Source: Candidatus Omnitrophota bacterium (GTDB lineage: Bacteria > Omnitrophota > Gorgyraeia > JACQQV01). Taken from it: DNA of 64,000 nucleotides. Where the stretch lies: NCBI GenBank assembly GCA_016206785.1, contig JACQQV010000008.1, forward strand, positions 4,402 to 68,401, read 5' to 3'. This document shows positions 25,300 through 43,281 of the stretch, piece after piece. How positions within the stretch are numbered: position 1 is the first letter of the stretch; the number at the start of each line of letters is the position of its first letter. The position numbers were made by a program, and so were the translations under genes. The notes under the pieces are model-generated. The model worked only from the letters and a program-made list of their open reading frames with translations. It was not told where the DNA came from and did no database searches.

Positions 25300-26502
25300 A
25301 TGAAGAAGAACTGGATGTGTGGCATTGAGATGGGATCGAGCAAGATGGTTGGCTCGGTCGGCAGGATCAAGGGAACGACCCTTTCCATTTTTGGGGCTGC
25401 CTGGGTGGATGCCGGCGGGATGACGAAAGGGGTTGTCTCAGATTTAGGAGAGGCCTCCTCAGCCATGAAGGAGCTGGTGGACCGTCTCGAATTTCAAACC
25501 AAACTCCGTCTGGAAGGAACCCTTTTGGGTGTGCAGGGATCGCATCTTGAATGTGTGAGCATTCAGGGAAAAGATCTGATTTCTGAGAAAGGAAGAGAGA
25601 TTGCCTCACGGGAAGTTCGGCGGGCGCTTCAAGCAGCTCAATCGGTTTCTCTGCCGATGAATCGCCGGGCCCTCCACGCCCTCCTTCAGGGTTACGACGT
25701 GGATGGTCAAGAAGGGATTCGTAACCCGATCGGGATGTACGCGACCCGATTCAGAGTTCATCTTAAAGTGATCACAGGAAACAGTTCTTTTATTCAAAAT
25801 GCGGTGACATGCGTCAATCGGGCGGGACTCGAGGTGGAGGGGATTGTCTTTTCAGGGTATGCCACAGCGCTCGCCGTTTTGGAAAGGGAAGAGCGAAATT
25901 TTGGGTGTGGTCTTCTTGAAATCGGTGAAGGGACAAGTAGTTTCCTCGCCTTTCGGGGTGGAGGGGTGACGCACCTTAAGGTTTTTCCCGTCGGAGGAGA
26001 ACTCATTACCCAACAGATTGCCGAGCGTTTTCAGATTCCCCTTCAGGAAGCAGAGACCCTGAAGAAACAGTACGGCTCCCTGATCTTAAGTAGCTCTGCA
26101 AAAGATCATGAATTTCTTGTGAGCGACGGCACCCGTCAAAAGGTCATTCGGCGGGCGGAACTTTGCGAGGTCATCCAAGGAGCCGTGGAAAAGCTCCTGC
26201 AGACTTTTAAGAAGGAGGTCAAAGAACTCCCTTCTCCCAACGCAACCCTTATTCTGGCGGGAGGCACAGCCCTCCTGGAAGGGATGGTGGAAGGGACGAG
26301 CCAATTTTTTCAGTGCCGTGTGCGTCTCGGCGAAGTTCAAGAGGTCCATTCTACCAAGCCTCTCCCGCTTCCTTTTGCCACTTCCGTCGGTCTTCTCCGG
26401 TACGGATACGAAAAACAAAAAGAAGGAAAGGAACTTCTTCCAGAAGGGCCTGTCGGGAAAGCCTTCACGAAGGTCAAAGAACTTTTTCTGGATTATTTTT
26501 AG
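25300..26502 (+). CDS. ftsA: Cell division protein FtsA (actin-like).
   Basis: CGIEMGSSKMVGSV N-terminus. ILAGGTALLEGM. Actin-fold motifs. No ftsZ follows. Confidence 0.85.
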   Translation: MKKNWMCGIEMGSSKMVGSVGRIKGTTLSIFGAAWVDAGGMTKGVVSDLGEASSAMKELVDRLEFQTKLRLEGTLLGVQGSHLECVSIQGKDLISEKGREIASREVRRALQAAQSVSLPMNRRALHALLQGYDVDGQEGIRNPIGMYATRFRVHLKVITGNSSFIQNAVTCVNRAGLEVEGIVFSGYATALAVLEREERNFGCGLLEIGEGTSSFLAFRGGGVTHLKVFPVGGELITQQIAERFQIPLQEAETLKKQYGSLILSSSAKDHEFLVSDGTRQKVIRRAELCEVIQGAVEKLLQTFKKEVKELPSPNATLILAGGTALLEGMVEGTSQFFQCRVRLGEVQEVHSTKPLPLPFATSVGLLRYGYEKQKEGKELLPEGPVGKAFTKVKELFLDYF

Positions 26503-28421
26503 TAAAGACCGGCAGGGTTAAAGATAATTTCGATTTCTTCAGGGGGGTTCTCGATCCTGATGAATCCTAAATCATCCCCCTCCAGATCTTCCTTCCCAAT
26601 CTTCCGCTCCGGGTAAGTTCGGATTCCTGGAGACCAGTGATACTTCAAGATCACCTCACCCGCCTCAGCCTCCACCTCTTTTAAAGAGATCCGGTTAAAA
26701 TCGGCAGAGACCCTTCCCGAACCTTTTAGAAAAAAGCTCCCGGTGTGATGGATCTGGTAGCAAGCGAAAGGACCGATCAACGCCTCTTCCTTAAGATAGG
26801 AAGGAGATAGGTGTCTTAAGTATTTCTTCGCCATTTGGCTAAAGCAGATGACCCATCGGATATTATAACGATCTACGTACTCCCGGAAGGCTGCGGAGGA
26901 AAGTTGTTCAATCGGCTTTCCTAAGAGTCTTCCATCCGTGAAGCCCATGAGGAGAAGTTGAGAAGGGACCTCAGGGGTAGGAGGGGTAATGACCTCCCTT
27001 CCGGTTAAAAGAGGGACAATGGCGGGAAGATGGGTCCCCCAATACACATGGTGAGGATGGTCGCTATCCTCCATCAAGAGACGTCCTTCTTGACCCCTAT
27101 TTTTTTGTACCCAGGCCAGAAGCCGATCAAGTTCTAGCGGCCTCATGGAAGTGGTGAGGGGGGAAGATGAGGCAAAGTTTTTCTCTTTAAGGAAGAGGCG
27201 TTTGACGCAGAAGGTATAGCGATTTTTATCGGTGGCGATACTCTGAAGGAGACCCAGAAGGATGATTCCATAAAAAAGGAGGAGAGAAGCCTTTTGAAGA
27301 TCGAGAGAGATAACCTTTTTTCCTTGCCGGCGCAACAGATCGAAAAACTGCGAACCCTTTTCGGCGATCAAGGCTGAGGCCGGAACCGACAGAAAAAGTG
27401 AGAGGGGCCAATCATAGCGATGTCTCTGAAGGAGGAGGGCGGTAGGCCCTTTGAGGAAAAACATGAAACTGAAGAGAAGGGCGATACCGACGGCAAAGGG
27501 GACTGCGGCGTTAAACTTCCTCCGGAACCATCTCCCCGTTCCCCAGAGGCCTAACATGAGAAGGAGAATCCGTGAAGCATCCTGATGGAGATACCAGGCG
27601 GAGAGCGTCGGCGGTTTCTCAAGGAACGCCCCAGAGAGGGCCGTGTGGAGAAAAGAGCGATAATGGAAATAGGGAAGAATCCAGAAAAGATTTGCGGCCA
27701 CGGTGACAAAGAGACCGAGCCCACCCAGGAGAGGGATCCCCCTCGGTTTTCTCTTCAGGGCACAAAGTAACAGCATCACGGCGGGAGGGAAGAGAATGCT
27801 GAAGGTCACCGTGTGGATCAAAAGGGCGAACGCCCCCCATAAGCAGAAAAGGAAAAAGGAGCGTAAGGTCCGTGCTTCGAGAAAATGAAGAAGGGTCACA
27901 AGGGCGAGGAGTGCCGGTGGACAGGCGAGGATATAGGAAATAGAACCCCACCGGACACTTGAGATATTTGGAATTTTCCAGAAGAAGAGCATTCCGAGGA
28001 TCCCGGCAATTGCAATAGAGGAAGAACGGAGTTTTAACGCCTTGGTGGCAGCCATGATCCAAAAAGGAAAAGTCAAGAGACCGATCAAGATATAAAGTTT
28101 CAGGAGTTCGGCAGCGTCTGCGAAAGGAAAAAGGAGAGAAAGCACCTGTTCCCCTTTGGAACTACTGATGGCAAAGGGATAATAGGGATAGCCAGCAAGA
28201 TGATACGGGCTGTAACCCCACAGCGTTCGCGAGGTCTTAAAGAGGATCCGTGCGTCATAAAGAGAAGAAGAGCGAAACGCATAGTCATCGGTGAGAAGCG
28301 GTCTTCCACTTCCCCATTCAAAGAAGGAGACGAAGCCGAGTATCCCAAAAAGATGCAAGGCATAGAAAAGAACAAAAAGAGATACAACAGGACGCTTCCA
28401 AAGAAGTTCAAAGGGTTTCAT
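26499..28421 (-). CDS. Large polytopic membrane protein, putative GT-C-type glycosyltransferase, with a ~250-aa C-terminal soluble domain.
   Basis: 640-aa ORF. At least 10 predicted TM segments over the first ~400 aa. Convergent with ftsA. Function unknown. Confidence 0.4.
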   Translation of the reverse strand: MKPFELLWKRPVVSLFVLFYALHLFGILGFVSFFEWGSGRPLLTDDYAFRSSSLYDARILFKTSRTLWGYSPYHLAGYPYYPFAISSSKGEQVLSLLFPFADAAELLKLYILIGLLTFPFWIMAATKALKLRSSSIAIAGILGMLFFWKIPNISSVRWGSISYILACPPALLALVTLLHFLEARTLRSFFLFCLWGAFALLIHTVTFSILFPPAVMLLLCALKRKPRGIPLLGGLGLFVTVAANLFWILPYFHYRSFLHTALSGAFLEKPPTLSAWYLHQDASRILLLMLGLWGTGRWFRRKFNAAVPFAVGIALLFSFMFFLKGPTALLLQRHRYDWPLSLFLSVPASALIAEKGSQFFDLLRRQGKKVISLDLQKASLLLFYGIILLGLLQSIATDKNRYTFCVKRLFLKEKNFASSSPLTTSMRPLELDRLLAWVQKNRGQEGRLLMEDSDHPHHVYWGTHLPAIVPLLTGREVITPPTPEVPSQLLLMGFTDGRLLGKPIEQLSSAAFREYVDRYNIRWVICFSQMAKKYLRHLSPSYLKEEALIGPFACYQIHHTGSFFLKGSGRVSADFNRISLKEVEAEAGEVILKYHWSPGIRTYPERKIGKEDLEGDDLGFIRIENPPEEIEIIFNPAGLY

Positions 28422-30496
28422 TGCACTTTAAGTGTTTCAACTCGTTTTAGATTCTCAACGGTCTCGTTGGCATAGGGATTCACCTTTAAAATATCCTTGA
28501 ATTCCTTCTCTGCTTTTTCAAGTTCACCCTTCTCTGCATAAAGAATTCCGAGGGCGTTATGCGCTGAAAGATAAGCGGCGTCAAAAGGGCTCACACGACG
28601 ATATTCTTTTTCCGCGTAGAGCCACTGTTTCCTGCTCGCATAAAGCCTTCCCAGTTGGAATCGGCTTTCTCCAAAATGAGGATTCAGCCTCACACTCTCC
28701 TTGAATTCTTTGAGAGCCAGGTCTTCCTTTCCCATGAGGGTATAGAGAACCCCTAGACTATAACGGAAGAGGTAGACTGTGGGTTGAAGGGCCACCGCCT
28801 GACGATAGGCGGATAACGCCTCTTCAAGTTTTCCTTGTTGACGGAGGAGATTTCCAAGGTTGTGATAAATGAGAGCACTCCGGGGTGAACGAGAAAGGTT
28901 TTTTCTGTAGAGAACCTCTGCTTTATCCACGATCCCCATCTTTCCATAAAAATCAGCGAGCCTTAGTTCAGCCGTCGAATCTTCAGCATTCAAAGGAATG
29001 GGGTCCTTTGCCAGATCGATGGCGTGAGCATGGAGGATGGGGCGATTTTCAGGGCTTTTCTTCATAAAAATGATGATCTGTTCATCCAGATAAATGGGGA
29101 CCCATTCAGCATCGCGGGAGAGCCAGCGTAGAAAGTTCGCTTGTTTTTGGATCGTGTGATCCAAGATGCAGAAGTTAATGTTGTACTTTTCCACCCATTT
29201 CGGCCAGAAAGCCGGAACATTGAAGAGGTGAAAAAGTTCTTGGAAGAAAGATGCTCCATAGACTTCGAGTCGCCCATCCATGAAGACCTTCCTTTCCGGG
29301 TAAAGGCGCCAGATGAGGTAATTTCCAACGTCCAGACCCGAGTTAAAGAAATTCCCGGGGAGATCACTTTCTGCAATAAAATTTGCTGCTTGAATGCAAT
29401 AGCGGTGTTCCGAAACGCCCAGGCCAAATCTTTTGTGAAGTCCTTCGTGGACATAAAAGGCGTTCGTTACAAAGGGGAGCGGCAGAAGAAGCGTCAAGGA
29501 GAAGAGAAGGTGCGTTTTCACGCCTTCTAAAAAACGCAGCCTTTCGTGAGAAAGGCCTTCAAGATTTTTAAGGAGAAGGAAACAACAAACGAAGGAAAAG
29601 GGAGCGATATTCCTTCTCGCTAAGAGAGAAAGGAAGGCAAAGATCAAAAATAAGACACCGTGAGAATAAGAGAAGCGTTTATGGTTTAGAAGAAAGGAAA
29701 AAGAGGTAAGAAGTAATAACGTTTTGTAAAGAAGGAGGGTGATACTCGCGTCATAGGTCGCGAGAGGCCTCGTGAATTCACCGATCCCCGCTGTGAAGAT
29801 TTCAATTTCACCGCTAATCCGGCTGTAAAGCGTCAGGGGAAAGAGGGATCCCTTCACGCCATACGGATTCACAAGCGTTGCAGCACTGGAGAGGAGAAAA
29901 AAGAGAAGGAGTCTTGCAGGGAACGATTTTTTCTCACAGATTTCACCGACGCAGAAAGCCCCGATGGCCAAGAGTCCAAAGATGAAGAGGCTGTGGCTAT
30001 TGACCCAAAGGATCTGAAGCAATGGGAGGAGGAACAGTCGTTTCGTGGGGCCCCGACGCTCCTTTTCAAGGATTAAAAGGGTAATGACCAGAAGAAGGAA
30101 ACTGAGCACCTCCGGTCGCTCAACGAGACGTTCGTGAGCTGTCCAGAGGGTTAAGGAAAGGATGGGGAGAAGAAGCAATGGTTCGATTTTTCGATAGAAA
30201 AATCGGAAGAGAAGAAAAAAGGTGAGTGTGGCAATGAAGACCTTAAAAAAAATGATCCCGTTAATCCCGAGCAGCTTGTAAAAAAAATAGATGAGGAGTT
30301 GAAAAAACCAGGAGAGATCGATCCAGGGATGGGTGGAGACGGTATAAGAGAAAAGGTCTATCCGAGGAATCGCATGGTGCTTCCAAATCCACTCCCCTGT
30401 TTTTAAATGCCACCAGACATCATAGGCCCAAAGGGTGTGGGTGACGGAGAGGATGACCCCAAGAAAAAAGAGAAAAATGATTACTTTCTCTCTCAT
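28418..30496 (-). CDS. Polytopic membrane protein (GT-C/PMT-like N-terminal region) with a C-terminal TPR repeat domain.
   Basis: The track ORF (to 31240) overlaps the bona fide pilB on the other strand, so the start is placed at ATG 30496 (MREKVIIFLFFLG...). Multi-TM N-terminal half. C-terminal TPRs (ALIYHNLGNLLRQQGKLEEALSAYRQAVALQP...). Confidence 0.5.
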   Translation of the reverse strand: MREKVIIFLFFLGVILSVTHTLWAYDVWWHLKTGEWIWKHHAIPRIDLFSYTVSTHPWIDLSWFFQLLIYFFYKLLGINGIIFFKVFIATLTFFLLFRFFYRKIEPLLLLPILSLTLWTAHERLVERPEVLSFLLLVITLLILEKERRGPTKRLFLLPLLQILWVNSHSLFIFGLLAIGAFCVGEICEKKSFPARLLLFFLLSSAATLVNPYGVKGSLFPLTLYSRISGEIEIFTAGIGEFTRPLATYDASITLLLYKTLLLLTSFSFLLNHKRFSYSHGVLFLIFAFLSLLARRNIAPFSFVCCFLLLKNLEGLSHERLRFLEGVKTHLLFSLTLLLPLPFVTNAFYVHEGLHKRFGLGVSEHRYCIQAANFIAESDLPGNFFNSGLDVGNYLIWRLYPERKVFMDGRLEVYGASFFQELFHLFNVPAFWPKWVEKYNINFCILDHTIQKQANFLRWLSRDAEWVPIYLDEQIIIFMKKSPENRPILHAHAIDLAKDPIPLNAEDSTAELRLADFYGKMGIVDKAEVLYRKNLSRSPRSALIYHNLGNLLRQQGKLEEALSAYRQAVALQPTVYLFRYSLGVLYTLMGKEDLALKEFKESVRLNPHFGESRFQLGRLYASRKQWLYAEKEYRRVSPFDAAYLSAHNALGILYAEKGELEKAEKEFKDILKVNPYANETVENLKRVETLKVQ

Positions 30497-30526
30497 AACG
30501 GATACTATACCAAAGGATAGCGTTCG

Positions 30527-30555
30527 TTGACAAGGTGAATATATTATGCTATACT
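30527..30555 (+). promoter_or_regulatory. Consensus sigma70 promoter of the pilB1-pilC1 operon. TTGACA-N17-TGcTATACT.
   Basis: TTGACA at 30527-30532, 17-nt spacer, TATACT at 30550-30555. AAGGAGGAG RBS and GTG start follow. Confidence 0.65.
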
Positions 30556-30583
30556 TAAAGAGGTTACGAAAAAGGAGGAGGTC

Positions 30584-32263
30584 GTGACGCAGACAAAAAG
30601 GTCGATTGGGAAGACGCTTGTGGAAGCGGGCCGACTTTCCAGTGAGGAACTCAGGCAGGCCGAAGAAGAGGCCCGCCAAAAGAACCTTTCCCTGGATGAG
30701 GTCCTGATCCGCAATAACTTCATTTCTCAGGAAGAAAGAGGGGTGCTGTTGGCGGATCAGATGGGGGTCCTCTATGTCGATCTTGAAAATTATCTGGTCG
30801 ACCCCGCCGCCATTGCCCTTGTTTCTGAAGCTTTTGCTAAAAAACATTCCTTGGTTCCCCTTTTCCGGATCGGAAACACCTTGACCGTGGCCATGGCCAA
30901 TCCTCAGGATGTTCTTGTCATCGATGATCTTCGTCAGAAGACCAAATGTGAAATCGAACCCTGCTATACCACCGTCGGTGCCATTCAAAATGCGATCGAT
31001 CAATATTACGGAGTGAGCGGTTCTCTCGAAGAATTGATCAAAGACATCGATCGAGAGAAACTGGCGCAGGAAGCCCAACGGAAGGGGAGGACGCCGGAAC
31101 AGATCGCGGAGGAGGCCCCTATCATTAAACTGGTCAATATGATTGTGATGCAGGCGATCCGCGATCGGGCAAGCGACATCCATGTGGAACCTGCAGAAAC
31201 CGTTCTCCGCATCCGGTATCGTATTGACGGTATCTTGCACGAAATCGTAACCACTCCCCTCGAATTGCAGCCACCGATCGTCTCCCGCATCAAGATCCTT
31301 TCAAAAATGGATATCGCAGAAAAGAGGATTCCACAGGACGGCCGTTTTCAAATGAAGAGCGAGGGGAAAGAAATAGACCTTCGCGTCTCTTCCTTTCCGA
31401 CCGTCTACGGAGAAAATGTGGTGATGCGTCTTCTCGATCGAAGCAATCTCCTCTTAAGCCTCGAGGATATCGGTTTTCCAACGGCAACGCTCAAAAATTA
31501 TAATCAACTGATCCATCGGCCCTACGGCATTATCTTGGTGACCGGACCGACGGGGAGTGGCAAAACCACGACCCTCTATGCCACCCTCCAAGCCATCAAT
31601 ACCGTCGCAAAGAATATCGTTACGATCGAGGACCCTGTCGAATATCATTTGGAACTGGTCCGCCAATGTCAAGTCAACCCGAAAGTGGGTCTGACCTTTG
31701 CCAATGGACTTCGTTCGATCGTCCGCCAAGACCCGGACATCGTGATGGTGGGCGAGATCCGTGATATGGAAACCGCCGAGATCGCGATTCATGCGGCCCT
31801 CACCGGCCAACTCGTTTTCTCAACCCTTCACACCAATGACGCCCCCTCTGCGGTGACACGCCTCGTCGATATGGGGATAGAACCCTTTTTGCTCTCCTCC
31901 TCGGTCGTTGGCGTTTTAGCACAGCGTCTGGTCCGTATCATCTGTCTGAAATGCAAAGCCTCTTATACACCTCCTGCCGAACTCTTGAAAGAGTTAAACC
32001 TGCCGCTCAACACCCTCTTCTACCGGGGAAAGGGATGCAGCCATTGCAAGAATACCGGGTACCGGGGACGGCTCGGTATCTTTCAACTGATGCTCATGAC
32101 CGCGGAAGTGAGGGAGCTTATCTTAAAGAATAGTTCTGCAGACCAAATCCGGAAGGAGGCCCATAGAGCGGGAATGATCACCCTCCGTGACGACGGTCTC
32201 GACAAAGCCCGCCAAGGCATCACGACCGTCGAAGAGGTCCTCCGAGTGACTCAGGAAGTATAA
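30584..32263 (+). CDS. pilB: Type IV pilus / T2SS assembly ATPase (PilB/GspE family).
   Basis: N-terminal GSPII_E_N domain. Walker A GPTGSGKTTT. Asp box. His box. Tetracysteine Zn motif (CLKC...CSHC). Confidence 0.9.
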   Translation: MTQTKRSIGKTLVEAGRLSSEELRQAEEEARQKNLSLDEVLIRNNFISQEERGVLLADQMGVLYVDLENYLVDPAAIALVSEAFAKKHSLVPLFRIGNTLTVAMANPQDVLVIDDLRQKTKCEIEPCYTTVGAIQNAIDQYYGVSGSLEELIKDIDREKLAQEAQRKGRTPEQIAEEAPIIKLVNMIVMQAIRDRASDIHVEPAETVLRIRYRIDGILHEIVTTPLELQPPIVSRIKILSKMDIAEKRIPQDGRFQMKSEGKEIDLRVSSFPTVYGENVVMRLLDRSNLLLSLEDIGFPTATLKNYNQLIHRPYGIILVTGPTGSGKTTTLYATLQAINTVAKNIVTIEDPVEYHLELVRQCQVNPKVGLTFANGLRSIVRQDPDIVMVGEIRDMETAEIAIHAALTGQLVFSTLHTNDAPSAVTRLVDMGIEPFLLSSSVVGVLAQRLVRIICLKCKASYTPPAELLKELNLPLNTLFYRGKGCSHCKNTGYRGRLGIFQLMLMTAEVRELILKNSSADQIRKEAHRAGMITLRDDGLDKARQGITTVEEVLRVTQEV

Positions 32264-32266
32264 ACC

Positions 32267-33502
32267 ATGCCGGTATACCGATACAAGGTGCGTGACGCCT
32301 CGGGACAGGCCATCACCGGCACTGTGGCGATGGAGTCTCCGGAGGCGACCGCACGGCATTTAGAGGAAAAGGGATATATCCCGATTTCCATCGAGGAGGA
32401 AGGGGCTGTCAGCACGATGCTGAAACCCTCTTCTTTCAGAACCCGCTTCGCCTCCGTCAAAGACAAAGATCTCAATTTCTTTACCCGTCAGATGGTGACA
32501 CTCACAAAAGCAGGGATTCCCCTCGTGGCGGGCCTTCAAACCCTCAGGGACCAAACCGCGAGTGGAACCCTGAAAGGGGTCATCGCCGCTGTGGTGAGCG
32601 ATCTTGAGAGAGGAGAAAGTTTCTCAAGCGCCCTTTCCCACCATCCCCGCGTCTTTTCGGAGCTTTATGTGGCGATGGTGAGGGCGGGGGAAGCGACGGG
32701 ACAGTTGGATGAAATCTTATTCCGTCTGGTAGAACTCGGGGAGTATGACACCTATGTAAAATCGAAGATCAAGACCGCCACCTTCTATCCTAAGCTCATC
32801 ATGAGTATCATGTTTCTCGCGTTTCTCTTCATCACCACTTTTGTTCTCCCCCGTTTCGCCTCCTTTTTTCAACAGGCGGGGGTGGAACTCTTATGGACGA
32901 CGAAATTTCTCCTCTGGTTAAACTTTGCGTTACGGAATTACTGGTATGCGGCGATCGCCATCGTCGGAATGTTTGTCTACGGATTCCGTTATTTTTTAAA
33001 GACGAAGGTTGGGAGGAGACTGTGGGACACGGTGAATCTGAAGATCCCCGTTTTCGGAACGCTCTTTCACCAATTTGCGATGTCTCGTTTCTCACGTGTC
33101 CTCTCCATTACGAGTAGGAGCGGCGTTCCCATTCTTGAATCCCTTGAAATCGTTTCCCGTTCTGTAGGAAATGTCACGATCTCCTCCGAGGTCTTGAGAC
33201 TTCGGGAATCGGTTCGTCGAGGGGAAGGTCTTGCGAAGCCCATGTCGGAAGGTAAGCTTTTTCCTCCCATTGTGATCCGGATGGTCTCTGTCGGCGAGGA
33301 GACGGGGAAGTTGGATGAACTCCTTTTGCGGGTTTCGGAATACTACGATTTTGAAGTGGACAATGCCATTCAAAAGCTGACCATCTTGATCGAGCCGATT
33401 CTCCTCGTTGTTCTCGGCGGTATGGTTCTCTTTCTCATCCTTTCCATTTTTGTGCCGCTCCTCCGGTTCTACACCAAGATTGCCGGAGGAGGGGGAAGAT
33501 AA
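32267..33502 (+). CDS. pilC: Type IV pilus / T2SS inner-membrane platform protein (PilC/GspF family).
   Basis: Two GspF repeats. 3 TM. ~410 aa. Immediately downstream of pilB. Confidence 0.9.
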   Translation: MPVYRYKVRDASGQAITGTVAMESPEATARHLEEKGYIPISIEEEGAVSTMLKPSSFRTRFASVKDKDLNFFTRQMVTLTKAGIPLVAGLQTLRDQTASGTLKGVIAAVVSDLERGESFSSALSHHPRVFSELYVAMVRAGEATGQLDEILFRLVELGEYDTYVKSKIKTATFYPKLIMSIMFLAFLFITTFVLPRFASFFQQAGVELLWTTKFLLWLNFALRNYWYAAIAIVGMFVYGFRYFLKTKVGRRLWDTVNLKIPVFGTLFHQFAMSRFSRVLSITSRSGVPILESLEIVSRSVGNVTISSEVLRLRESVRRGEGLAKPMSEGKLFPPIVIRMVSVGEETGKLDELLLRVSEYYDFEVDNAIQKLTILIEPILLVVLGGMVLFLILSIFVPLLRFYTKIAGGGGR

Positions 33503-33514
33503 AGGGGCTGACCC

Positions 33515-33543
33515 TTGACAAAAAACGGATCGTCAGGTATACT
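33515..33543 (+). promoter_or_regulatory. Consensus sigma70 promoter. TTGACA-N17-TATACT.
   Basis: TTGACA at 33515-33520, 17-nt spacer, TATACT at 33538-33543. It begins 12 nt after the pilC stop. Confidence 0.65.
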
Positions 33544-33550
33544 CTTCAGA

Positions 33551-33651
33551 AGACAAGATCCGAAAAAGGCACACCCGGGGAAACCCGGGGCCGCAAAGCT
33601 ATGGGTCTAAAGCCCCTGGGCATGACCGCCAAGCGTACCGAGGGTATGATC
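33551..33651 (+). ncRNA. Candidate c-di-GMP-I (GEMM-like) riboswitch aptamer / structured leader.
   Basis: GGCACA-CCCGGG-GAAA-CCCGGG-G-CCGCAAAGC at 33568-33599 mirrors the GEMM GGCAAA-P2-GNRA-P2-GACGCAAAGC core. A UCUAAAG...UAUGAUC tetraloop-receptor-like pair follows. See findings. Confidence 0.4.
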
Positions 33652-33686
33652 GCCAAGCTGCCGAAGGCAGGCTTGGCATTTTTTTT
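33652..33686 (+). terminator. Intrinsic terminator (expression platform of the leader).
   Basis: GCCAAGCUGCC-GAAG-GCAGGCUUGGC hairpin followed by an 8-U tract. Confidence 0.8.
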
Positions 33687-33746
33687 CGCCAGAAATTAAA
33701 GCATCTTAGAAAGTTTTGCATTTGGACATTTGCACAAAAATTTGGC

Positions 33747-33775
33747 TTGATTTTTCTACAACATTGTGTTAAAAT
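33747..33775 (+). promoter_or_regulatory. Proximal pilA promoter. TTGATT-N17-TGtTAAAAT (extended -10).
   Basis: TTGATT at 33747-33752, 17-nt spacer, TAAAAT at 33770-33775 preceded by TG. GGGAGG RBS before ATG 33804. Confidence 0.45.
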
Positions 33776-33803
33776 TAAAGATCGAAGAAGGGAGGTAGCG
33801 TTT

Positions 33804-34319
33804 ATGGAAAGAACAAAGAAACGGACTCATCGTGGGTTCACGTTGATTGAACTTGTCATCGTGATCACCATTCTAGCGATCTTGGCTGCTGTGGCTATTC
33901 CAGCCTTCCAGAACCTTACCACTCAGGCGAGGAACGCAGGAACCAATGGGGCGCTTGGGGGACTTCGGAGCGCACTCGCCGTCTATAGAGCGAACGCGAT
34001 TTCAGCGGGTTGCGATCCTGCTGGAACAACAGGATTAGCCGCAACCGACTGTTGGCCGAGACTTGTAGATATAACGTCGAATAGCGTGATGGAGAATAAC
34101 ATTGTTCCTGCGAACCCTTGGGCTGTTACAGCAGGGATGACCGCTGCGGAGTCCAGTGGTATCGAGGCTGCCACTTCGGCACAGGCGGCCGCCCGTACCG
34201 TCGATGGCACTGGTGCTGGATGGCGATACTATATTGCAGACAATGCGACTCCCAATGGGATCATCTACGCCAATAGCACTTCAAACGGTGGAGGGACAGC
34301 CACAGAGAATACTTTCTAA
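33804..34319 (+). CDS. pilA: Type IV major pilin (PilA-like).
   Basis: Class III signal MERTKKRTHRG|FTLIELVIVITILAILAAVAIPAF with Glu+5. Ala/Thr/Gly/Ser-rich C-terminal region. Two Cys. Confidence 0.85.
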   Translation: MERTKKRTHRGFTLIELVIVITILAILAAVAIPAFQNLTTQARNAGTNGALGGLRSALAVYRANAISAGCDPAGTTGLAATDCWPRLVDITSNSVMENNIVPANPWAVTAGMTAAESSGIEAATSAQAAARTVDGTGAGWRYYIADNATPNGIIYANSTSNGGGTATENTF

Positions 34320-34344
34320 CAGGATTCTATGTCGTTGCATGACA

Positions 34345-34380
34345 AAAGAGCTGGGGAGAAAACCCAGCTCTTTTATTTTT
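34345..34380 (+). terminator. Intrinsic terminator after pilA.
   Basis: AAGAGCUGGG-GAGAAAA-CCCAGCUCUU hairpin followed by UUAUUUUU. Confidence 0.8.
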
Positions 34381-34384
34381 CAGT

Positions 34385-36103
34385 TTGAAAGAGAGCCGCT
34401 TCATTAAAACCCCCTTCATCTTTTTTCTGCTTTTACTCGGGACCATCCTCTACTGGAATAGTCTTCAAACCCCTTTTATGTGGGATGAGAATTTCCTCAT
34501 CATCAAAGATCCGAGGGTGCATGCGTGGTCTCGATTTCTGGACATCTTTCGAGAACCCTTTCAAAGTAGAGAATCCGGCTTTTCAACATACCACCGTCCC
34601 TTCGTCACCCTCTCCTTCCGCATCGACCATCTCTTTTGGAAGCTGAATCCCCTCGGATACCATCTTACCAATCTGTTATTTCATCTTTCAAACACCCTTT
34701 TGGTCTACCTGTTATTCAGACGCCTGTTCCAGAGACCGTCTCTTTCTTTCTGGGGGGCCTTTCTCTTTTTGGCCCATCCGGCCCATGTGGAAGCGGTCAC
34801 CTATATTCCGGGACGGGTCGATCTCATCTCCTTTTTCTTTTTTCTTTGCAGTTTCCACTTTTACCTGAAAGGGAAAGCGCTCGAACAAACAGTTTGGTCT
34901 TATGCGTTATCCCTCCTTTTTTACCTTTTTGCGCTCCTCTCAAAAGAGATGGCGGCCTCTCTTCCACTTCTTGTTTTTTCCTATACACTTTTCGTGGATT
35001 TGAAAAAGACAAAACATAAAGATGCTGAACGAATTCTTTTGTTGGGATTCTTTCTTCTTTTGATCGCCTGGCTCCTTTTTCGTCAGTGGATTGTGATTCA
35101 AGTTCCATTGAAGACTCTCTTGGATCTTCCCCATCTTTTAAGAAGAGTCCTTGTGCTCCCGGTCGTGTTGTGGGCCTATCTCAACATTTGGTTTTTCCCC
35201 TGGCCTCTCTATATGGATCGGATGATTCCGATCATTCCTCTTGGGTTCCTTCCCTATCTTGTGGCATGGATTTTTCTTTTCCTTTGCGTGATCGGAATCT
35301 TTCTTTCTCTGCATCGGCCCCTCGAGAGATTTTGGCTTCTTTGGATCGGCTGGACGCTGCTTCCCGTGATTCACATCGTTCCGATCTACCTCAAATACCC
35401 CGACTCTCTTTTTATTGCAGAGCATTTTCTCTATTTCTCAAGTGTCGGAATCATCGGACTCCTCTTGTGCCGCTTCGGTCATTTCCTGGTTGCACAAAAC
35501 GGACACGAGGACCTCCCACCGAAAGGAGTTCTGGTATGGGGAGTCCTCTTAACTTGTTTCTCGTTTCTGGTGATCTGGAGGAATGGGGAATTTAGAGACC
35601 GCATTATCTTTTTTGAACAGACCGTCCGACATGCGCCCTGGGACAGCCGTGCCCATAATCAGCTGGGTCTTGCGTATCTTGAAAGAGGAAACTTGGAGAA
35701 GGCTGGGAAGTTATTTCGAAGGTCTGTCTCCTTAGCTCCCAACCCGAGTCCCTATGGGAACCTTGGAATTCTTGCGCAACAACAAGGGAAGATCGAGGAA
35801 GCGATTCAGTATCATCAAAAGGCGCTTGATCTGCTTCCAGGATATAGCGTCGCTCTTTTTAACCTTGGGAATCTGTACGCCCATCAGAAAGAATGGGATA
35901 AGGCGATTCAATTTTATGAGAATGCGGTAGAGAGCGATCCAGATCTCCTACAGAGTTACATAGAGGTAAGCCGCCTTTACTGGAAATTGGGGAAAATAAA
36001 AGAGGCACTTGGCGCAGTCCATCAGGGACTCCAAAAAGATCCTTCAGATCCCCATCTTCAGAGAATCAAAAGGTGGATCGAGGATGGGCCTTCTAACCCA
36101 TAG
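34385..36103 (+). CDS. TMTC-like (DUF1736 + TPR) GT-C family membrane protein, putative protein O-glycosyltransferase.
   Basis: WDENFLIIKDP, YHRPFVTLSF and NPLGYHLTNLLFH motifs typical of the DUF1736/TMTC family. ~11 TM. C-terminal TPRs. The TTG start sits in the terminator U-tract, so the start is uncertain. Confidence 0.6.
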   Translation: MKESRFIKTPFIFFLLLLGTILYWNSLQTPFMWDENFLIIKDPRVHAWSRFLDIFREPFQSRESGFSTYHRPFVTLSFRIDHLFWKLNPLGYHLTNLLFHLSNTLLVYLLFRRLFQRPSLSFWGAFLFLAHPAHVEAVTYIPGRVDLISFFFFLCSFHFYLKGKALEQTVWSYALSLLFYLFALLSKEMAASLPLLVFSYTLFVDLKKTKHKDAERILLLGFFLLLIAWLLFRQWIVIQVPLKTLLDLPHLLRRVLVLPVVLWAYLNIWFFPWPLYMDRMIPIIPLGFLPYLVAWIFLFLCVIGIFLSLHRPLERFWLLWIGWTLLPVIHIVPIYLKYPDSLFIAEHFLYFSSVGIIGLLLCRFGHFLVAQNGHEDLPPKGVLVWGVLLTCFSFLVIWRNGEFRDRIIFFEQTVRHAPWDSRAHNQLGLAYLERGNLEKAGKLFRRSVSLAPNPSPYGNLGILAQQQGKIEEAIQYHQKALDLLPGYSVALFNLGNLYAHQKEWDKAIQFYENAVESDPDLLQSYIEVSRLYWKLGKIKEALGAVHQGLQKDPSDPHLQRIKRWIEDGPSNP

Positions 36104-36182: not shown

Positions 36183-37868
36183 ATGGGGGTGAAACCGACA
36201 AAAAAAAGGGTAGGACGGAAGACTGAACTTTTTTGGCTCAATACCCTCTATGAAATCGTTCGAGATGTCAATTCAACCTTAGGCCTCAAAAGCACCTTAA
36301 AGACGATTGTTGAAAAGGCAAAGACACTCCTTAAAGTCGAACGGGCTTCTCTCATGCTTCTCGATAAGAAAGGGAAGACGCTCACCATCCATTTTGCGGA
36401 GGGCCTCTCCCCCTTGATTCTCCGCAATACGCGCATCAGGATCGGCGAAGGCGTTTCCGGATGGGTGGCTCAAAAGGGGAAGCCGCTTCTCATCCAAGAC
36501 ATTAGCAAAGACCGGCGCTTCAAGAAAAAAGAAGGGGCCCGCTACTCCACCGATTCCCTCCTTTCGGTTCCCCTCAAGGTCAAAGGAAAAACAATCGGCG
36601 TTTTAAATGTCAACAATAAAAGAGGAAGGAAGATTTTTACCCACGACGACCTGGAACTTTTAACCGCCCTTGCCGATGAAGCGGCGATCGCCATCCACAA
36701 TGCAACGCTTTATGATGAACTGGTCCAGGTGAATGAGCGTCTCAAGGAACTCGATAAACTGAAATCCGATTTTGTGGCGAAGGTCTCCCATGAACTTCGA
36801 ACCCCTCTTGCCACAACCCGTTACTTTATTACCGCGGTGCGGGGGGAGACCCAGAACACAGGCGCAACCCGCCAGAAAGAATACCTGGGCCTCATCGAAG
36901 ACAACCTTGACCGACTCACGCGGCTCATTGATAATCTCCTCGATTTTTCCAAGATGGAGGTGGGACGGTTTGAACTGAAGAAGGAGCGCGTCGATCTTTT
37001 ATCGATTGCGCGGTCGGCGATCGAAACCCTCCGAAGAAAAGGAGAGGAAAAGGAGATCGCCTTGGTGCTCTTAAGTCCAGGAAAAGTTCCTCCCACCTAT
37101 TTGGATCAGGACCGGATGACCCAAGTAGTCACGAATCTCGTCGACAATGCGATCAAGTATACCCCTTCAAAGGGGTCTGTTTCGGTTGAGATCAAAAGGG
37201 GGAACGGGAATATTCTCCTCACTGTTCGAGATACCGGGGTCGGGATCCGTTCGTCCGATCAGGAAAGGCTTTTCGAAAAGTTCCGGCAGCTCGGACCGAG
37301 CATCCCCCACGAAAAAGGGGTAGGGTTGGGGCTCGCCATTGTGAAAGAGATTGTAATACTTCACAAAGGAAAGATCTGGGTAAAATCGCAGGAAGGGAAG
37401 GGGAGCACATTCACCATCTCCCTTCCGGTTTTAAGCGACGAAGAATTTTTTATGGAGAGGTTGTCGCAGGAAATTCAGAAGGCGCGTGAAAACGGGGATT
37501 TCCTCTCCCTCGTGATTTTAGGAATTGCAAATTTCGAGCATCTTAAAGAAAATATCGGAGAAGAAGGGATGGAATCCCTTTTGGATGAGATCGCCCGCCT
37601 GGTGAAGGAAACGGTCCGCCGACCGAGCGACATCGTCGCCAGTTACAAGCAGGGGAAGGTGATCGCCATTTTAGCGGGTGCCGATAAGGCGGGGGCACTC
37701 GCGCTTGCAGAACGTGTGAAAAAGACGATCCTTTCTCAGCCTTTTCCGATCAAGGGTTCCCCGGTTTCACCGGAACTTCAGTTCGGGATCGGGACCTTTC
37801 CGGAGGATGGAGGAAGCCAAGAAGAATTGGTGAAGCAGGCAGAAAAAAGTTTATACGGTCATTCCTAA
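36183..37868 (+). CDS. GAF-sensor histidine kinase with a C-terminal degenerate GGDEF domain (RxxD I-site retained).
   Basis: GAF (LLKVERASLMLLD...GEGVSGWV). HisKA H-box (SHELRTPL). HATPase_c (NLVDNAIKYT...GVGLGL). C-terminal GGDEF fold with A-site SYKQGK in place of GG(D/E)EF, preceded by RPSD (RxxD). Confidence 0.7.
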   Translation: MGVKPTKKRVGRKTELFWLNTLYEIVRDVNSTLGLKSTLKTIVEKAKTLLKVERASLMLLDKKGKTLTIHFAEGLSPLILRNTRIRIGEGVSGWVAQKGKPLLIQDISKDRRFKKKEGARYSTDSLLSVPLKVKGKTIGVLNVNNKRGRKIFTHDDLELLTALADEAAIAIHNATLYDELVQVNERLKELDKLKSDFVAKVSHELRTPLATTRYFITAVRGETQNTGATRQKEYLGLIEDNLDRLTRLIDNLLDFSKMEVGRFELKKERVDLLSIARSAIETLRRKGEEKEIALVLLSPGKVPPTYLDQDRMTQVVTNLVDNAIKYTPSKGSVSVEIKRGNGNILLTVRDTGVGIRSSDQERLFEKFRQLGPSIPHEKGVGLGLAIVKEIVILHKGKIWVKSQEGKGSTFTISLPVLSDEEFFMERLSQEIQKARENGDFLSLVILGIANFEHLKENIGEEGMESLLDEIARLVKETVRRPSDIVASYKQGKVIAILAGADKAGALALAERVKKTILSQPFPIKGSPVSPELQFGIGTFPEDGGSQEELVKQAEKSLYGHS

Positions 37869-38261
37869 ATGGGACAGAAAAGAATCCTTGTCGTCGAAGA
37901 TGAAGCAGATTTTTCAAAAGCCCTGAGGGCAGTGCTTGAGGGCCAGGGTTTCGAGGTCCATACAGCCGCCACAGGCAAGGAAGGGCTTTTCCTTGCCAAA
38001 AGCATTACGCCAGACCTCATCATTCTCGATGTGATGCTTCCTGAAATTGACGGCTACAAGGTCTGCCGTCTCCTTAAGTTCGACGAACGCTACAACAAAA
38101 TTCCGATCATCATGCTGACCGCCCGTGCCCAAGAGGAAGACAAGAACCTGGGGCAACAAACCGGTGCAGATGCCTACCTGGTCAAAGGTCAAAAGCCTGA
38201 AGTGCTGATCGAGCAGATCAAAGCGATTCTTGCAAAAGGTCCTTCTCTCCCGCCCGCTTAA
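37869..38261 (+). CDS. Stand-alone response-regulator receiver (CheY-like).
   Basis: ILVVEDEADF...ILDVMLPEIDG...IIMLTA...DAYLVK receiver motifs. 130 aa. No output domain. Confidence 0.8.
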   Translation: MGQKRILVVEDEADFSKALRAVLEGQGFEVHTAATGKEGLFLAKSITPDLIILDVMLPEIDGYKVCRLLKFDERYNKIPIIMLTARAQEEDKNLGQQTGADAYLVKGQKPEVLIEQIKAILAKGPSLPPA

Positions 38262-38384: not shown

Positions 38385-38609
38385 ATGAAACAGGTCGCTT
38401 TTGCAAGGTCGAATTCCCAACTCATGACGGTCGAGGAGGTTGCCCGTTATCTTGGAATTCATGCCATCACCGTTTATCGGATGCTCAAGAAAACAGACAT
38501 CCCTGCCACCAAACTGTTAGGGAAGTGGCGTTTTAAGAAGGATGTCCTGGACCGCTGGCTCGAATCCCGGATGGAGGAAAGATCTCTTCCCCTCAAACGG
38601 AGAAGGTGA
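38385..38609 (+). CDS. Excisionase-family helix-turn-helix DNA-binding protein (HTH_17-like).
   Basis: MTVEEVARYLGIHAITVYRMLKKTDIPATKLLGKWRFKKDVLDRWLE matches the excisionase-family HTH domain. 74 aa. The stop is 4 nt before the pilB2 start. Confidence 0.65.
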   Translation: MKQVAFARSNSQLMTVEEVARYLGIHAITVYRMLKKTDIPATKLLGKWRFKKDVLDRWLESRMEERSLPLKRRR

Positions 38610-38613
38610 AGCG

Positions 38614-40287
38614 ATGCCGAGGCAGAAGAATCTATCTTTAGAAGAGGTGATCCTGGCCAAGGGACTGTTGGATCCTGAACGGCTGGAAAGGGCCAAAAAA
38701 GAATCAGAAAACTCGAAGGAATCTCTTCAGAAAACTTTGATCCGGCTGGGATATCTTACAGAAGAATTACTCATTCCTCTTTTGGAGGAACGGTCCGGCC
38801 TTCCCTACGTGGATCTCGATACCTACACGATGGACCCCGAACTCATTAAGCTCATTCCGGAGGCGGTTGCGCGCCGGTATCAACTGATCCCTCTTTTTAA
38901 GATCGGAAAGATCCTCACGGTGGCGATGGCAGATCCCTCCAACTATTTTGCCCTCGATGAAATACGCCTTAAGGCCCATTGCGATGTGGAGGCGGTCGTG
39001 AGTACCGAAGAGAAGATCCGACAGGCGATCGACCAACACTATGGTACTGGTGGTTCCATGGAAGCATTGGTGAAGTCGATTACCCAGCGGACGATGGATC
39101 TGGGGGATGAAAAATTGGTAGAAGAAGCCCCCATTATCCAACTCGTCAACCTCCTCATTTCCCAAGCGGTCCGGGAAAGGGCGAGCGATATCCATATTGA
39201 GCCGGAGACAGACACATTGCGCATCCGCCTTCGGATTGATGGCGTTCTTCATGAAATTCCTGCTCCCCCGAAGGAATTGGAACGGGCGGTGATCTCCCGG
39301 ATCAAGGTCCTTTCAAAGATGGACATCGCAGAAAGAAGAATTCCTCAGGATGGACGTTTCAGGGTGCAGGTCGATCACAAAGAGATTGATCTGCGCGTTT
39401 CAACGATTCCAAGCCATCATGGAGAGAATGTGGTCATGAGGCTTCTGGATACAGCGACCGTCTTGATCGGCCTCGAGGAACTCGGTCTTCCGCATGATGC
39501 CTTTGAACCCTTTCATCATCTGATCCACCGGCCGCATGGCATCATTCTTGTGACAGGTCCCACAGGAAGCGGGAAGACAACGACACTTTATGCGTGTCTC
39601 AATAAAATCAGCACCCTTGAAAAAAATATCATCACGATTGAAGATCCGATCGAATATGAAATGGAAGTCATCCGCCAAATGCAGGTCAATCCCAAGATCG
39701 GCGTTACCTTTGCAAACGGCCTCCGCTCCATCTTAAGGCAAGACCCAGACATCATCATGGTCGGCGAGATCCGTGATGTAGAGACTGCAGAGATGGCGAT
39801 TCACGCGGCCCTCACAGGACATCTTGTTTTCTCAACCCTTCATACCAACGATGCCCCGGGGGCGCTTACCCGTCTTATGGACATGGGTGTTGAGCCATTC
39901 CTTATCGCCTCTTCTGTGATCGGGATCGTGGCCCAGCGGCTCGTCCGACTCATCTGCCCGCAATGCAAAAAATCGTATGTCCCTTCCCAAGAACTTTTGA
40001 AGACATTAAGGCTTCCTCTCGGGAAGGGCCCCATTCCCCCTCTGTATCGGGGAGAAGGATGCCGTTTCTGCAAGGAGACAGGATACAAAGGAAGGACCGC
40101 GATTTTTGAACTGATGGTCATGGAGGAGGAAATCCGGGAACTGGTGATTCAGAGAGCCTCTTCGCCAAAAATGAAGGATGCGGCCTGTCGGAAGGGCATG
40201 CAGGTTTTGAGGGAGGATGGCCTGGCCAAGGCGATGGCAGGAATTACTTCGATTGAAGAAGTGCTTCGTGTGACGCAGGACGAGTAA
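38614..40287 (+). CDS. gspE: Second PilB/GspE-family secretion ATPase.
   Basis: Walker A GPTGSGKTTT. Asp and His boxes. CPQC...CRFC Zn motif. N-terminal GSPII_E_N-like domain. The track start at 38542 overlaps the HTH gene, so the start is ATG 38614. Confidence 0.9.
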   Translation: MPRQKNLSLEEVILAKGLLDPERLERAKKESENSKESLQKTLIRLGYLTEELLIPLLEERSGLPYVDLDTYTMDPELIKLIPEAVARRYQLIPLFKIGKILTVAMADPSNYFALDEIRLKAHCDVEAVVSTEEKIRQAIDQHYGTGGSMEALVKSITQRTMDLGDEKLVEEAPIIQLVNLLISQAVRERASDIHIEPETDTLRIRLRIDGVLHEIPAPPKELERAVISRIKVLSKMDIAERRIPQDGRFRVQVDHKEIDLRVSTIPSHHGENVVMRLLDTATVLIGLEELGLPHDAFEPFHHLIHRPHGIILVTGPTGSGKTTTLYACLNKISTLEKNIITIEDPIEYEMEVIRQMQVNPKIGVTFANGLRSILRQDPDIIMVGEIRDVETAEMAIHAALTGHLVFSTLHTNDAPGALTRLMDMGVEPFLIASSVIGIVAQRLVRLICPQCKKSYVPSQELLKTLRLPLGKGPIPPLYRGEGCRFCKETGYKGRTAIFELMVMEEEIRELVIQRASSPKMKDAACRKGMQVLREDGLAKAMAGITSIEEVLRVTQDE

Positions 40288-40288
40288 G

Positions 40289-41500
40289 ATGCCGGTCTAT
40301 ACCTACAAAGCGCGTGATGCATTCGGTCATGTGATTCATGGAAGGATGGAAGCGAAGGACGAGGAGACTCTTGCCACCCGGCTTAAAAAGCTCGGGTTTC
40401 TGGCTACCGCCCTTCGGGAGAAGACCGAGACCTTCGCGATCGAAGACCTCCTCGAGACATTCCGGCGGGTGAAGGAAGATCACCTTGTCATGACGACATT
40501 ACAACTCTCCAAGATGGTCCGTGCAGGGATCCCTCTTCTGGATACCTTAAAAACGCTCACCGATCAGACAGAAGACCGTTATTTTCGGGCAGTCCTCGCC
40601 GACGTGTCGAGGAACGTGGAAGGGGGGAGCGCTCTTTCTGAAGCACTTTCTCAATATCCCCGCATCTTTGATGCAGGGTATGTGAGTATTGTGAAGGCGG
40701 GTGAGACGAGCGGAAAACTTCCGGATGTTCTCGAAAGAATCGCGCAGCTTTTAGAGGATCGTCTGGAGCTCAAGCAAAAAATTAAAACAGCGCTCATGTA
40801 TCCCTGTGTTTTGCTTGTCTTCGGGGTTTGTCTCTCCGGTTTTATGGTGGTTTATCTTTTGCCCTCATTTATGGATATTTTTCAGAAGGCGAAAGTTCCC
40901 CTTCCCAGCCCGACGCAATTCCTCTACGACGTAAGCCAATTCCTCCGTCACTGTTGGGGGCTGATCCTCTTTGTCGTTCTTTCTCTCCCGTTTATCTGGC
41001 AGTCTCTCCTTCATTGGAAAAAGAGCCACATTCTCATCGACCGGTTCTTTTTGGAGTTCCCGCTTTTCGGGCCGCTCGTCCGTCAGGTCACGGTCACCCG
41101 ATTCGCCCAGAATCTTGAAACACTCCTTTCAAGCGGCGTACCGATCTTAGAGGCGTTGGATGTGGCGAAAAAGACCTCAGGGAATCTTGTCATGATGGAG
41201 GTTCTGGAGAAGGCGCAGGCGCGGGTCTCTCAAGGAGAATCTTTGGCGAAACCGCTCAAGGAGAGCAAGGAGTTTCCCCTCATGCCGGTTCATATGATTG
41301 CGGTGGGAGAGGAGTCTGGGACGCTCGATGAGATGCTCGGCCATATCGCCAGTTTCTACCAAAAGACGGTGGATCATGCCATTAAACAGCTCACTGCGCT
41401 GGTAGAGCCCCTCTTTCTCATTCTCATGGGAGGGATGGTCGGTTTTATCATGGCCTCCCTTCTTCTTCCGATCTTTAGGATGGTTAAACTCATTCAATAA
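40289..41500 (+). CDS. gspF: Second PilC/GspF-family platform protein.
   Basis: Two GspF repeats, 3 TM, ~400 aa. Confidence 0.9.
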   Translation: MPVYTYKARDAFGHVIHGRMEAKDEETLATRLKKLGFLATALREKTETFAIEDLLETFRRVKEDHLVMTTLQLSKMVRAGIPLLDTLKTLTDQTEDRYFRAVLADVSRNVEGGSALSEALSQYPRIFDAGYVSIVKAGETSGKLPDVLERIAQLLEDRLELKQKIKTALMYPCVLLVFGVCLSGFMVVYLLPSFMDIFQKAKVPLPSPTQFLYDVSQFLRHCWGLILFVVLSLPFIWQSLLHWKKSHILIDRFFLEFPLFGPLVRQVTVTRFAQNLETLLSSGVPILEALDVAKKTSGNLVMMEVLEKAQARVSQGESLAKPLKESKEFPLMPVHMIAVGEESGTLDEMLGHIASFYQKTVDHAIKQLTALVEPLFLILMGGMVGFIMASLLLPIFRMVKLIQ

Positions 41501-41503
41501 AGG

Positions 41504-41532: not shown

Positions 41533-41605
41533 ATAAAGTTGGTATTTCATAGTCTCACAATGAGATAGGTGAATTTTCCATAGGCGAAAAAAGGGGGAGT
41601 GACAA

Positions 41606-43271: not shown

Positions 43272-43281
43272 GAGAAAAGGA

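Follow-up and report, generated by a model that had tools for sequence, protein, structure and literature searches.

We analysed a 64,000-nt stretch (the window) of a metagenome-assembled genome of Candidatus Omnitrophota, in which the type IV pilin gene pilA lies among the genes of three large membrane proteins, here called A, B and C. The reading that we consider moderately probable is that the region combines a type IV pilus operon (pilB-pilC, pilA), one glycosyltransferase dedicated to the pilin (C), and a separate pair of GT-C proteins (A and B). Starting from the end of the dcw cell-division cluster (ddl, ftsQ, ftsA), the order is A and B on the minus strand, then, divergently from B, pilB and pilC, followed by a riboswitch, pilA and C (Table 1). 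Positions without a prefix are those of the window, and L001, L002 and so on designate contigs or loci of relatives. Gene order, folds, motifs and synteny were the material, and from these we infer topology, sugar donor, substrates and regulatory logic. The region had previously been read, from the letters of the DNA, as a candidate module for O-glycosylation of the pilin by all three membrane proteins. The open reading frames (ORFs) of A, B, pilB, pilC, pilA and C, and their divergent arrangement, are as that sequence-only reading gave them.

The motifs of C and the matches of its relatives mark it as a GT-C glycosyltransferase of the TMTC/PMT type, and its tetratricopeptide repeat (TPR) domain is predicted to be periplasmic. 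A total of 481 homologues were detected, and the membrane domains of 26 family members were aligned. Among these 26, seven match PMT_2 (best E 1.3e-11), two TMTC_DUF1736 (8.8e-6) and one PMT (2.3e-5). Residues D34, R71, P72, H131, P132, E136, R144, D146, E188, E346 and Y350 are invariant or nearly so in the family. D34 in particular is invariant in 44 sequences, and is followed by E35 in the long extracytoplasmic loop predicted after transmembrane (TM) helix 1, where GT-C enzymes carry a conserved catalytic Asp/Glu. The active-site motifs M1 to M7 published for TMTC proteins (PMC7801869) were compared with C by eye, using Table 4 of that paper. Five of the seven are present, with a numbering nearly that of human TMTC3: M1 (DD) corresponds to D34-E35, M2 (SHKSYRP) to S67-T-Y-H-R71-P72, M3 (RxD) to R144-V-D146, M4 (KE(T/Q)xxT) to K187-E188-M-A-A-S192, and M7 (ERxxY) to E346-H-F-L-Y350. 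M5 (DW) and M6 (PxxP) are without a clear match. The TMTC-type motifs suggest a hexose (mannose-like) donor for C, and not arabinofuranose.

An AlphaFold (AF2) model of C was obtained with a pLDDT of 91 and a pTM of 0.91. Its helices, combined by hand with the positive-inside rule, predict a cytoplasmic N-terminus, 11 TM helices within residues 1-405, and TPR repeats on the outside. With such a topology, the active-site residues D34-E35, Y69-H70-R71-P72, R144/D146, K187-E188 and E346/Y350 would all be on the periplasmic face, where the TPR domain would hold the substrate.

What links C to the pilin is gene order. The pilB-pilC-pilA-C succession is kept in L001 and L002, two orthologous metagenome contigs, and pilA-C is kept in L003. 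The gap between pilA and C is 65 bp in the window, and in L002 C is duplicated in tandem. GTDB species genomes were then scanned with an alignment of nine C sequences. At least 527 relatives were found, mainly in Omnitrophota and often several per genome, and 80 loci (L003-L082, 604 kb) were kept. In 14 of the 71 loci with enough upstream sequence, a pilin ORF of the GFTLIE type ends at most 300 bp upstream of the C homologue on the same strand, and in six loci a second pilin is found just 3' of it. Counted the other way round, 20 of the 29 pilin-like ORFs present in the 604 kb directly flank a C homologue. We estimated from the density of pilin ORFs that about 0.5 pilin-adjacent loci were expected by chance, so that the observed number is some 30-fold higher. 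Pilin-adjacent homologues for the most part group together in the neighbour-joining tree: 11 of them fall into one clade of 15 members, and the clade of the window protein forms another group. Part of this expanded family thus shows a specific association with pilins.

The same family portrait can be read differently. C could be a PMT/TMTC-like O-glycosyltransferase acting on other, or many, periplasmic substrates, its site after pilA being a convenient transcript and the pilin no substrate at all. Most members of the family are indeed not linked to a pilin, and the family is greatly expanded: a genome may encode many paralogues, and there are tandem arrays that include TMEM260_N+TPR proteins. 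We nevertheless hold this explanation to be rather unlikely, given the excess of pilin adjacency over chance, its concentration in certain clades including that of the window, the second pilins found 3' of the enzyme, and the precedent of TfpW.

In the pilin-dedicated reading, pilA-tfpW is the closest known system, and TMTC/PMT_2 the closest enzyme family by motifs. TfpW, from P. aeruginosa group IV (Pa5196/PA7), is a GT-C pilin D-arabinofuranosyltransferase required for pilin glycosylation. It is encoded directly 3' of pilA. This 646-aa protein has its N-terminus in the cytoplasm and, by prediction, 11 TM helices, carries a GT-C DDX motif, and ends in a periplasmic TPR domain (bioRxiv 10.1101/2020.04.19.049825). 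The likeness of C to TfpW was drawn from this published description. C too is encoded immediately 3' of the major pilin gene. Its N-terminus is predicted to be cytoplasmic, and it would likewise have about 11 TM helices, followed by a large TPR domain at the C-terminal end that is predicted to be periplasmic. An acidic motif of the DDx type (W-D34-E35) would lie in its first periplasmic loop. The two differ in that no genes for D-arabinofuranose biosynthesis are present in the window, in that C has TMTC-type motifs, and in their hosts, which belong to the phylum Omnitrophota for C and to the Proteobacteria for TfpW.

With the eukaryotic protein O-mannosyltransferases TMTC1-4 (GT-C/PMT clan, DUF1736 + TPR), C has in common a predicted 11-TM N-terminal domain followed by C-terminal TPR repeats, in addition to the motifs aligned with TMTC3 and the Pfam matches of some C relatives. 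Unlike them, it has no Pfam match to DUF1736 or PMT_2 of its own and two motifs without a clear match. It also comes from a bacterium, and a pilin is presumed to be its substrate, whereas the substrates of the TMTC proteins are cadherins. The proposed periplasmic O-glycosylation of a type IV pilin also recalls PglL and TfpO (PilO), the latter being likewise encoded right after pilA. However, these enzymes belong to the Wzy_C family, and C is of a different fold and family. No Wzy_C domain was found in A, B or C, the single trace being a Wzy_C_2 match within the TPR repeats of C (E 0.0066).

By analogy with TfpW, a polyprenyl-phosphate carrier would supply the sugar that C passes to Ser/Thr residues of the pilin, in the periplasm and before assembly. 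Pilin glycosylation by C is plausible. PilA itself has a class III leader (MERTKKRTHRG/FTLIE), and it shares 60-65% identity with its orthologues from L001 and L002. Its C-terminal half had been described as rich in Ala, Thr, Ser and Gly. The count for the mature protein bears this out, with 53% A/T/S/G and 21% S+T, compared to 26% and 12% in eight other genes of the window.

The case of A and B is distinct. From profile comparison and structure prediction, they are paralogues from two families without significant Pfam match, and both of GT-C fold. For B, the prediction is an 11-TM module of GT-C fold in residues 1-350, then a small alpha/beta domain in residues 355-480, ahead of the TPR repeats; A has about 10-11 TM helices and a beta-rich C-terminal domain (~425-640). 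Seven residues of B are invariant, D26, H30, N166, H168, R295, D407 and R409, the first two, which stand in the corresponding loop after TM1, in 45 sequences. None of 45 B-family members has any Pfam match in the membrane part, and the membrane domain of B is also found in stand-alone proteins of about 480 aa, again without Pfam match. The A family comprises 2293 cluster representatives at E<=1e-3, and its Pfam traces are weak PTPS_related matches in two of 51 members (5.8e-4). NCBI has an entry of 100% identity for B, annotated only as ‘tetratricopeptide repeat protein’, and one for A, annotated only as ‘hypothetical protein HY590_00960’. In the window proteins, Pfam and NCBIfam families were found neither in A nor in the membrane parts of B and C, and the TPR repeats of B and C are all that is detected.

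When a profile of 51 A sequences was aligned with the B profile by hhalign, the N-terminal modules matched with a probability of 94% (E 9.4e-8): residues 37-245 of A align with residues 17-211 of B, and D46 of A stands opposite D26 of B. An earlier alignment with 13 A sequences had been negative, and significance appeared with the 51-sequence profile only. An AlphaFold model was then made of an artificial concatenation of B(1-500) and A. In this fused model, pLDDT is about 90 for B, the C-terminal domain of A is good, and residues 30-95 of A are poor. Foldseek searches of the PDB with it returned GT-C proteins for all of the top 21 matches (STT3, AglB, PglB, AftA, DPY19, ArnT), each at a probability of 1.0 and with E values between 1e-4 and 1e-2, and ALG12, Pmt4 and EmbA-EmbB appeared lower in the same table. 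Because A and B are homologous, the GT-C assignment applies to both. Profiles of the A and B membrane domains compared with PDB sequences gave chance-level matches only (E 0.6-3). By hhalign, the C family is related neither to the A nor to the B family (probability <10%), which places C in a different GT-C family.

Thus all three membrane proteins are of GT-C type, as had been proposed, C by its TMTC motifs and the Pfam matches of its relatives, A and B by Foldseek and their mutual alignment, and two of them, B and C, do carry TPR repeats recognised by Pfam. The classification by profile was less favourable to the proteins themselves: window A, B and C fall into no Pfam GT-C family, and the PMT_2 matches are those of seven among 26 relatives of C. 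The more specific label of a DUF1736 protein, given earlier to C, is not borne out by Pfam.

With STT3, AglB and PglB at the top of the structural matches, A and B were considered as N-oligosaccharyltransferases. The pilin contains two sequons of the N-x-S/T type, N147-A-T and N157-S-T (34242-34280, residues 147-159), and similar ones, differently placed, exist in two orthologues. This candidate function was rejected, as the WWDYG motif is lacking. A regular-expression search for WWD or W.D.G found neither in A, B or C, and the likeness to STT3, PglB and AglB is at the level of the GT-C fold. The presence of the sequons is curious, in that the best structural matches of A and B are oligosaccharyltransferases, yet the motif of these enzymes is absent.

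It could also be argued that the TPR membrane proteins are no enzymes, but factors for pilus assembly or secretin pilotins, similar to PilF, PilW or Tgl. Partial NCBIfam matches of the TPR regions to PilW, Tgl and GltE point that way. These are all far below the curated cut-offs and concern TPR repeats only, and the membrane domains keep invariant residues of catalytic type, and GT-C motifs or fold. In addition, pilotins of the PilF/PilW/Tgl type are lipoproteins, not proteins with 11 TM helices. We regard this possibility as highly improbable.

Judging from gene neighbourhoods, the A-B pair is a conserved glycosylation-type module whose association with the pilus is lineage-specific. The stop codon of B and the start codon of A overlap (ATGA), and the two genes are equally close in three further lineages, with overlaps of 4 nt or 1 nt or a gap of 3 nt across the four, a spacing that indicates translational coupling. 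In the window, ftsA and A converge and overlap by 4 nt (26499-26502). In L001, L087, L088 and L089, the pair is located between ftsA and a divergent neighbour, together with two extra genes. One encodes a GT2 protein of 228-235 aa, with best matches to AglJ, dolichyl-phosphate hexose transferase, PpgS and ArnC, all below curated cut-offs. The other encodes a GT2-methyltransferase, which in L001 is replaced by a GT2+GT4 protein and a methyltransferase gene of its own. The window has neither of the two, and ftsA and A are direct neighbours in it. The AglJ/DPM1-like GT2 gene and its companion between ftsA and A occupy positions 12627-16607 in L001, 9135-11658 in L087 and 4412-8942 in L089, the latter locus also encoding a sulfatase-domain protein.

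Enzymes of the AglJ/PpgS/ArnC type make polyprenyl-phosphate sugars, which are the donors of GT-C enzymes. Since relatives carry such a synthase next to the pair, polyprenyl-phosphate-hexoses are most likely the donors that A and B would use. Their target would probably be located in the envelope or at the surface, and would not necessarily be the pilin. In this respect the pair resembles the three-component systems of extracytoplasmic glycosylation, made of a polyprenyl-phosphate GT2 synthase, a flippase and a GT-C enzyme, with the AglJ/PpgS/ArnC-like GT2 gene at its side in relatives. It differs from them by the lack of an identified flippase, by the absence of the GT2 genes from the window, and by having two GT-C proteins instead of one, of which one bears TPR repeats.

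On its divergent side, the pair has pilB as a neighbour of B only in the window and in L001. In L087 and L088, this neighbour is the gene of a beta-helix protein of 1519 aa, preceded by a riboswitch of the c-di-GMP-I-GGC type (64.2 bits; L087 335-5130, minus strand), and in L089 it is a c-di-GMP-I riboswitch (79-222, minus strand) whose gene is off the contig. Distant homologues of A and B have no pilus context, and one B-like protein is part of a tandem array with a TMEM260_N+TPR protein. As the divergent neighbour differs between relatives, the tie of A-B to the pilus is weak.

This bears on the proposal that A, B and C jointly build the pilin glycan, one initiating it and the others extending or branching it, under co-regulation by a shared divergent promoter. 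The three proteins do have the GT-C fold in common, B and C both have TPR domains, L001 has the same A-B / pilB-pilC-pilA-C arrangement, and TfpW is presumed to require a polymerising as well as a transferring activity (bioRxiv 10.1101/2020.04.19.049825). However, in L087, L088 and L089 the A-B pair has no adjacent pilus genes while the ftsA/GT2 side is kept, distant homologues are found away from pilus genes, and the promoter spacing of B is not conserved in L001 (see below). A joint role of the three enzymes is unlikely in our view. The pilin glycosylation module of the sequence-only reading is thus credible for C, whose site and architecture are TfpW-like and whose adjacency to the pilin is conserved, and is weakly supported for A-B. 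Orthologous neighbourhoods keep the pilin-C link in L001, L002 and L003 and in part of the genome scan; the place of A-B beside pilB recurs in L001 and not in L087, L088 or L089. The core idea of the sequence-only reading was right at the level of fold and is plausible for C; for A, B and co-regulation it went too far.

An extension that we consider quite improbable makes A and B a heteromeric, TPR-guided periplasmic machine of two undescribed GT-C families, which would decorate surface structures under c-di-GMP control together with a polyprenyl-phosphate-hexose synthase and a GT2-methyltransferase. Its targets would be the pilus in the window genome and in L001, and the 1519-aa beta-helix adhesin in L087/L088. 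A, which is without the common D71, could be the non-catalytic partner.

Several observations weigh against our preferred reading, in which C modifies the pilin and A and B form a separate GT-C pair. For C, Pfam finds no match of the window protein to DUF1736 (PF08409, E<=1) or PMT_2. In a Foldseek search of the PDB with the full C model, the top 50 matches are all TPR proteins, so that the GT-C fold is not structurally supported. Similarly, the full-length C profile search matches solely TPR proteins, and the profile hidden Markov model of the membrane domain has no match among PDB sequences at E<=10. As to its substrate, about 80% of the sampled C-family members are not adjacent to a pilin, and this hugely expanded family cannot as a whole be called pilin-specific. 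Concerning A and B, the EL1 loop of A is poorly modelled (pLDDT 30-40), and the Foldseek table gives no indication of which half of the fusion matched. Besides, D46 of A is conserved in 34 of 51 members and D71 in 41 of 51, and window A has S71 at the latter position, and may thus be non-catalytic. Finally, no sugar-donor genes (GT2 synthase, flippase) are present in the 64-kb window.

The intergenic region between B and pilB contains two promoter-like sites, a match to the consensus at 11 of 12 positions on the pilB side, and at 10 of 12 on the B side, where a TG lies upstream of the -10 box. The B -35 hexamer TTGTCA (30533-30528, minus strand) overlaps the pilB -35 hexamer TTGACA on the opposite strand, which confirms the back-to-back hexamers reported earlier at 30527-30533. 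The region has 20 promoter-like sites, against 8.8 +/- 3.3 in shuffled sequences, and the B and pilB sites are among the best.

The TATAGT box of B ends 7 nt ahead of its ATG at 30496, as the sequence-only reading had it when calling the gene effectively leaderless. An extended -10 box (TGnTATAGT, TATGAT or TATAAT) is positioned 7-9 nt before the ATG in the window (30494-30509, minus strand), in L001 (8700-8727) and in L089 (330-350); the start region of B in L087 is ambiguous in this respect. From these sequences, gene B appears to be transcribed as a leaderless mRNA, a design kept in the window, L001 and L089. In L001, both hexamers of the B-pilB region are conserved, but the -35 hexamer lies 24 nt from the -10 box of B, so that B would rely there on its extended -10. 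The shared -35 geometry not being kept in L001, the co-regulation that had been deduced from it finds no support in conservation. Overlapping -35 boxes could equally be compatible with competition between the two promoters.

The terminator announced between pilA and C was also found, as a hairpin (34344-34374) with a 12-bp stem and a T run, and a homologous hairpin follows pilA in L001. C begins directly after this terminator, and no recognisable promoter or Shine-Dalgarno sequence was found upstream of its start. Transcripts that read through the pilA terminator are its probable source, and its expression would then be low.

A further element, absent from the sequence-only reading, is located between pilC and pilA. 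It is a cyclic di-GMP (c-di-GMP) family aptamer (Rfam clan CL00126), which matches positions 1-80 of the 80 of RF03167 with 68.5 bits, for a gathering score of 59 (E 8.5e-15), and which has a strong promoter-like site of its own (33515-33543). Its 3' strand is also the 5' arm of a terminator, at about 33650-33686, which is present in the ligand-free minimum-energy fold. As the terminator shares a strand with the aptamer and forms without ligand, an ON switch is predicted: pilA would be under control of the riboswitch, and switched on when the ligand is bound. c-di-GMP is the putative ligand of this GGC variant, and the GGDEF kinase encoded downstream could be a local source of it. The arrangement is reminiscent of the c-di-GMP riboswitch upstream of pilA1 in Clostridioides difficile. 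A sigma-54 promoter was looked for by eye upstream of pilA, and no GG-N10-GC match was seen.

In L001, the search for a riboswitch ahead of pilA was negative. There, a c-di-GMP-I-family riboswitch (2930-3015, minus strand) follows the C gene and precedes an operon with two N_methyl (minor-pilin-like) genes, and in L003 one also comes after C (4249-4382, plus strand). The riboswitch position within the pilus locus therefore varies. In L002, the closest relative, the site corresponding to the window riboswitch, between pilC and pilA, contains three small genes (2544-3320; 65 aa, a 136-aa DUF6036 protein, and 61 aa).

If C does glycosylate the pilin, pilin modification by a GT-C+TPR enzyme in the manner of TfpW would extend from a few Proteobacteria to the Omnitrophota, with an enzyme closer in its motifs to the O-mannosyltransferases of the TMTC type found in animals. 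The Omnitrophota are very small bacteria with a presumed dependence on host cells, to which pili would matter for attachment. For annotation, it should help that two large families of membrane proteins, those of A and B, are now flagged as GT-C glycosyltransferase candidates. Current understanding is not overturned by these proposals.

Table 1. Features of the A-B and pilB-pilC-pilA-C region, with window positions
Feature	Position	Strand	Description
Protein A	26499-28421	-	640 aa, ORF
Protein B	28418-30496	-	692 aa, ORF; Pfam TPR ~490-690
B promoter-like site	30504-30533	-	TTGTCA-18-TG-n-TATAGT
pilB-pilC promoter-like site	30527-30555	+	TTGACA-17-TATACT
pilB, pilus extension ATPase	30584-32263	+	Pfam MshEN + T2SSE (T2SSE E 9e-141)
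pilC, platform protein	32267-33502	+	Pfam T2SSF, E 7e-60
Promoter-like site ahead of riboswitch-pilA	33515-33543	+	TTGACA-17-TATACT, 11/12 matches
c-di-GMP-I-family riboswitch aptamer	33559-33666	+	Best model GGC variant, RF03167
Riboswitch expression-platform terminator	33650-33686	+	Hairpin + U8
pilA, type IV pilin, 171 aa	33804-34319	+	Pfam N_methyl; leader MERTKKRTHRG, F+1, E+5
Intrinsic terminator after pilA	34344-34384	+	Abuts TTG start of C
Protein C	34385-36103	+	572 aa, TTG start; Pfam TPR ~420-570
Sensor kinase, GAF + HisKA/HATPase + GGDEF	36183-37868	+	Pfam; context

Immediately 3' of C, the plus strand encodes a GAF-HisKA-HATPase-GGDEF hybrid kinase and a response regulator (36183-38261), and the same pair is also found 3' of the C paralogues in L002. 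These are followed by a second set of genes resembling a pilus or type II secretion system (38542-48778, plus strand). It comprises pilB2 and pilC2, and genes for a GspG-like pseudopilin, a PilX-like protein, a PilM-PilN fusion and PilO, with PilM and PilO encoded a second time. Of the ORFs scanned, none was seen to encode a secretin. Elsewhere in the Omnitrophota, the TMTC-like+TPR family forms tandem arrays of four TPR membrane proteins, one of them with TMEM260_N (L085 4843-13881).

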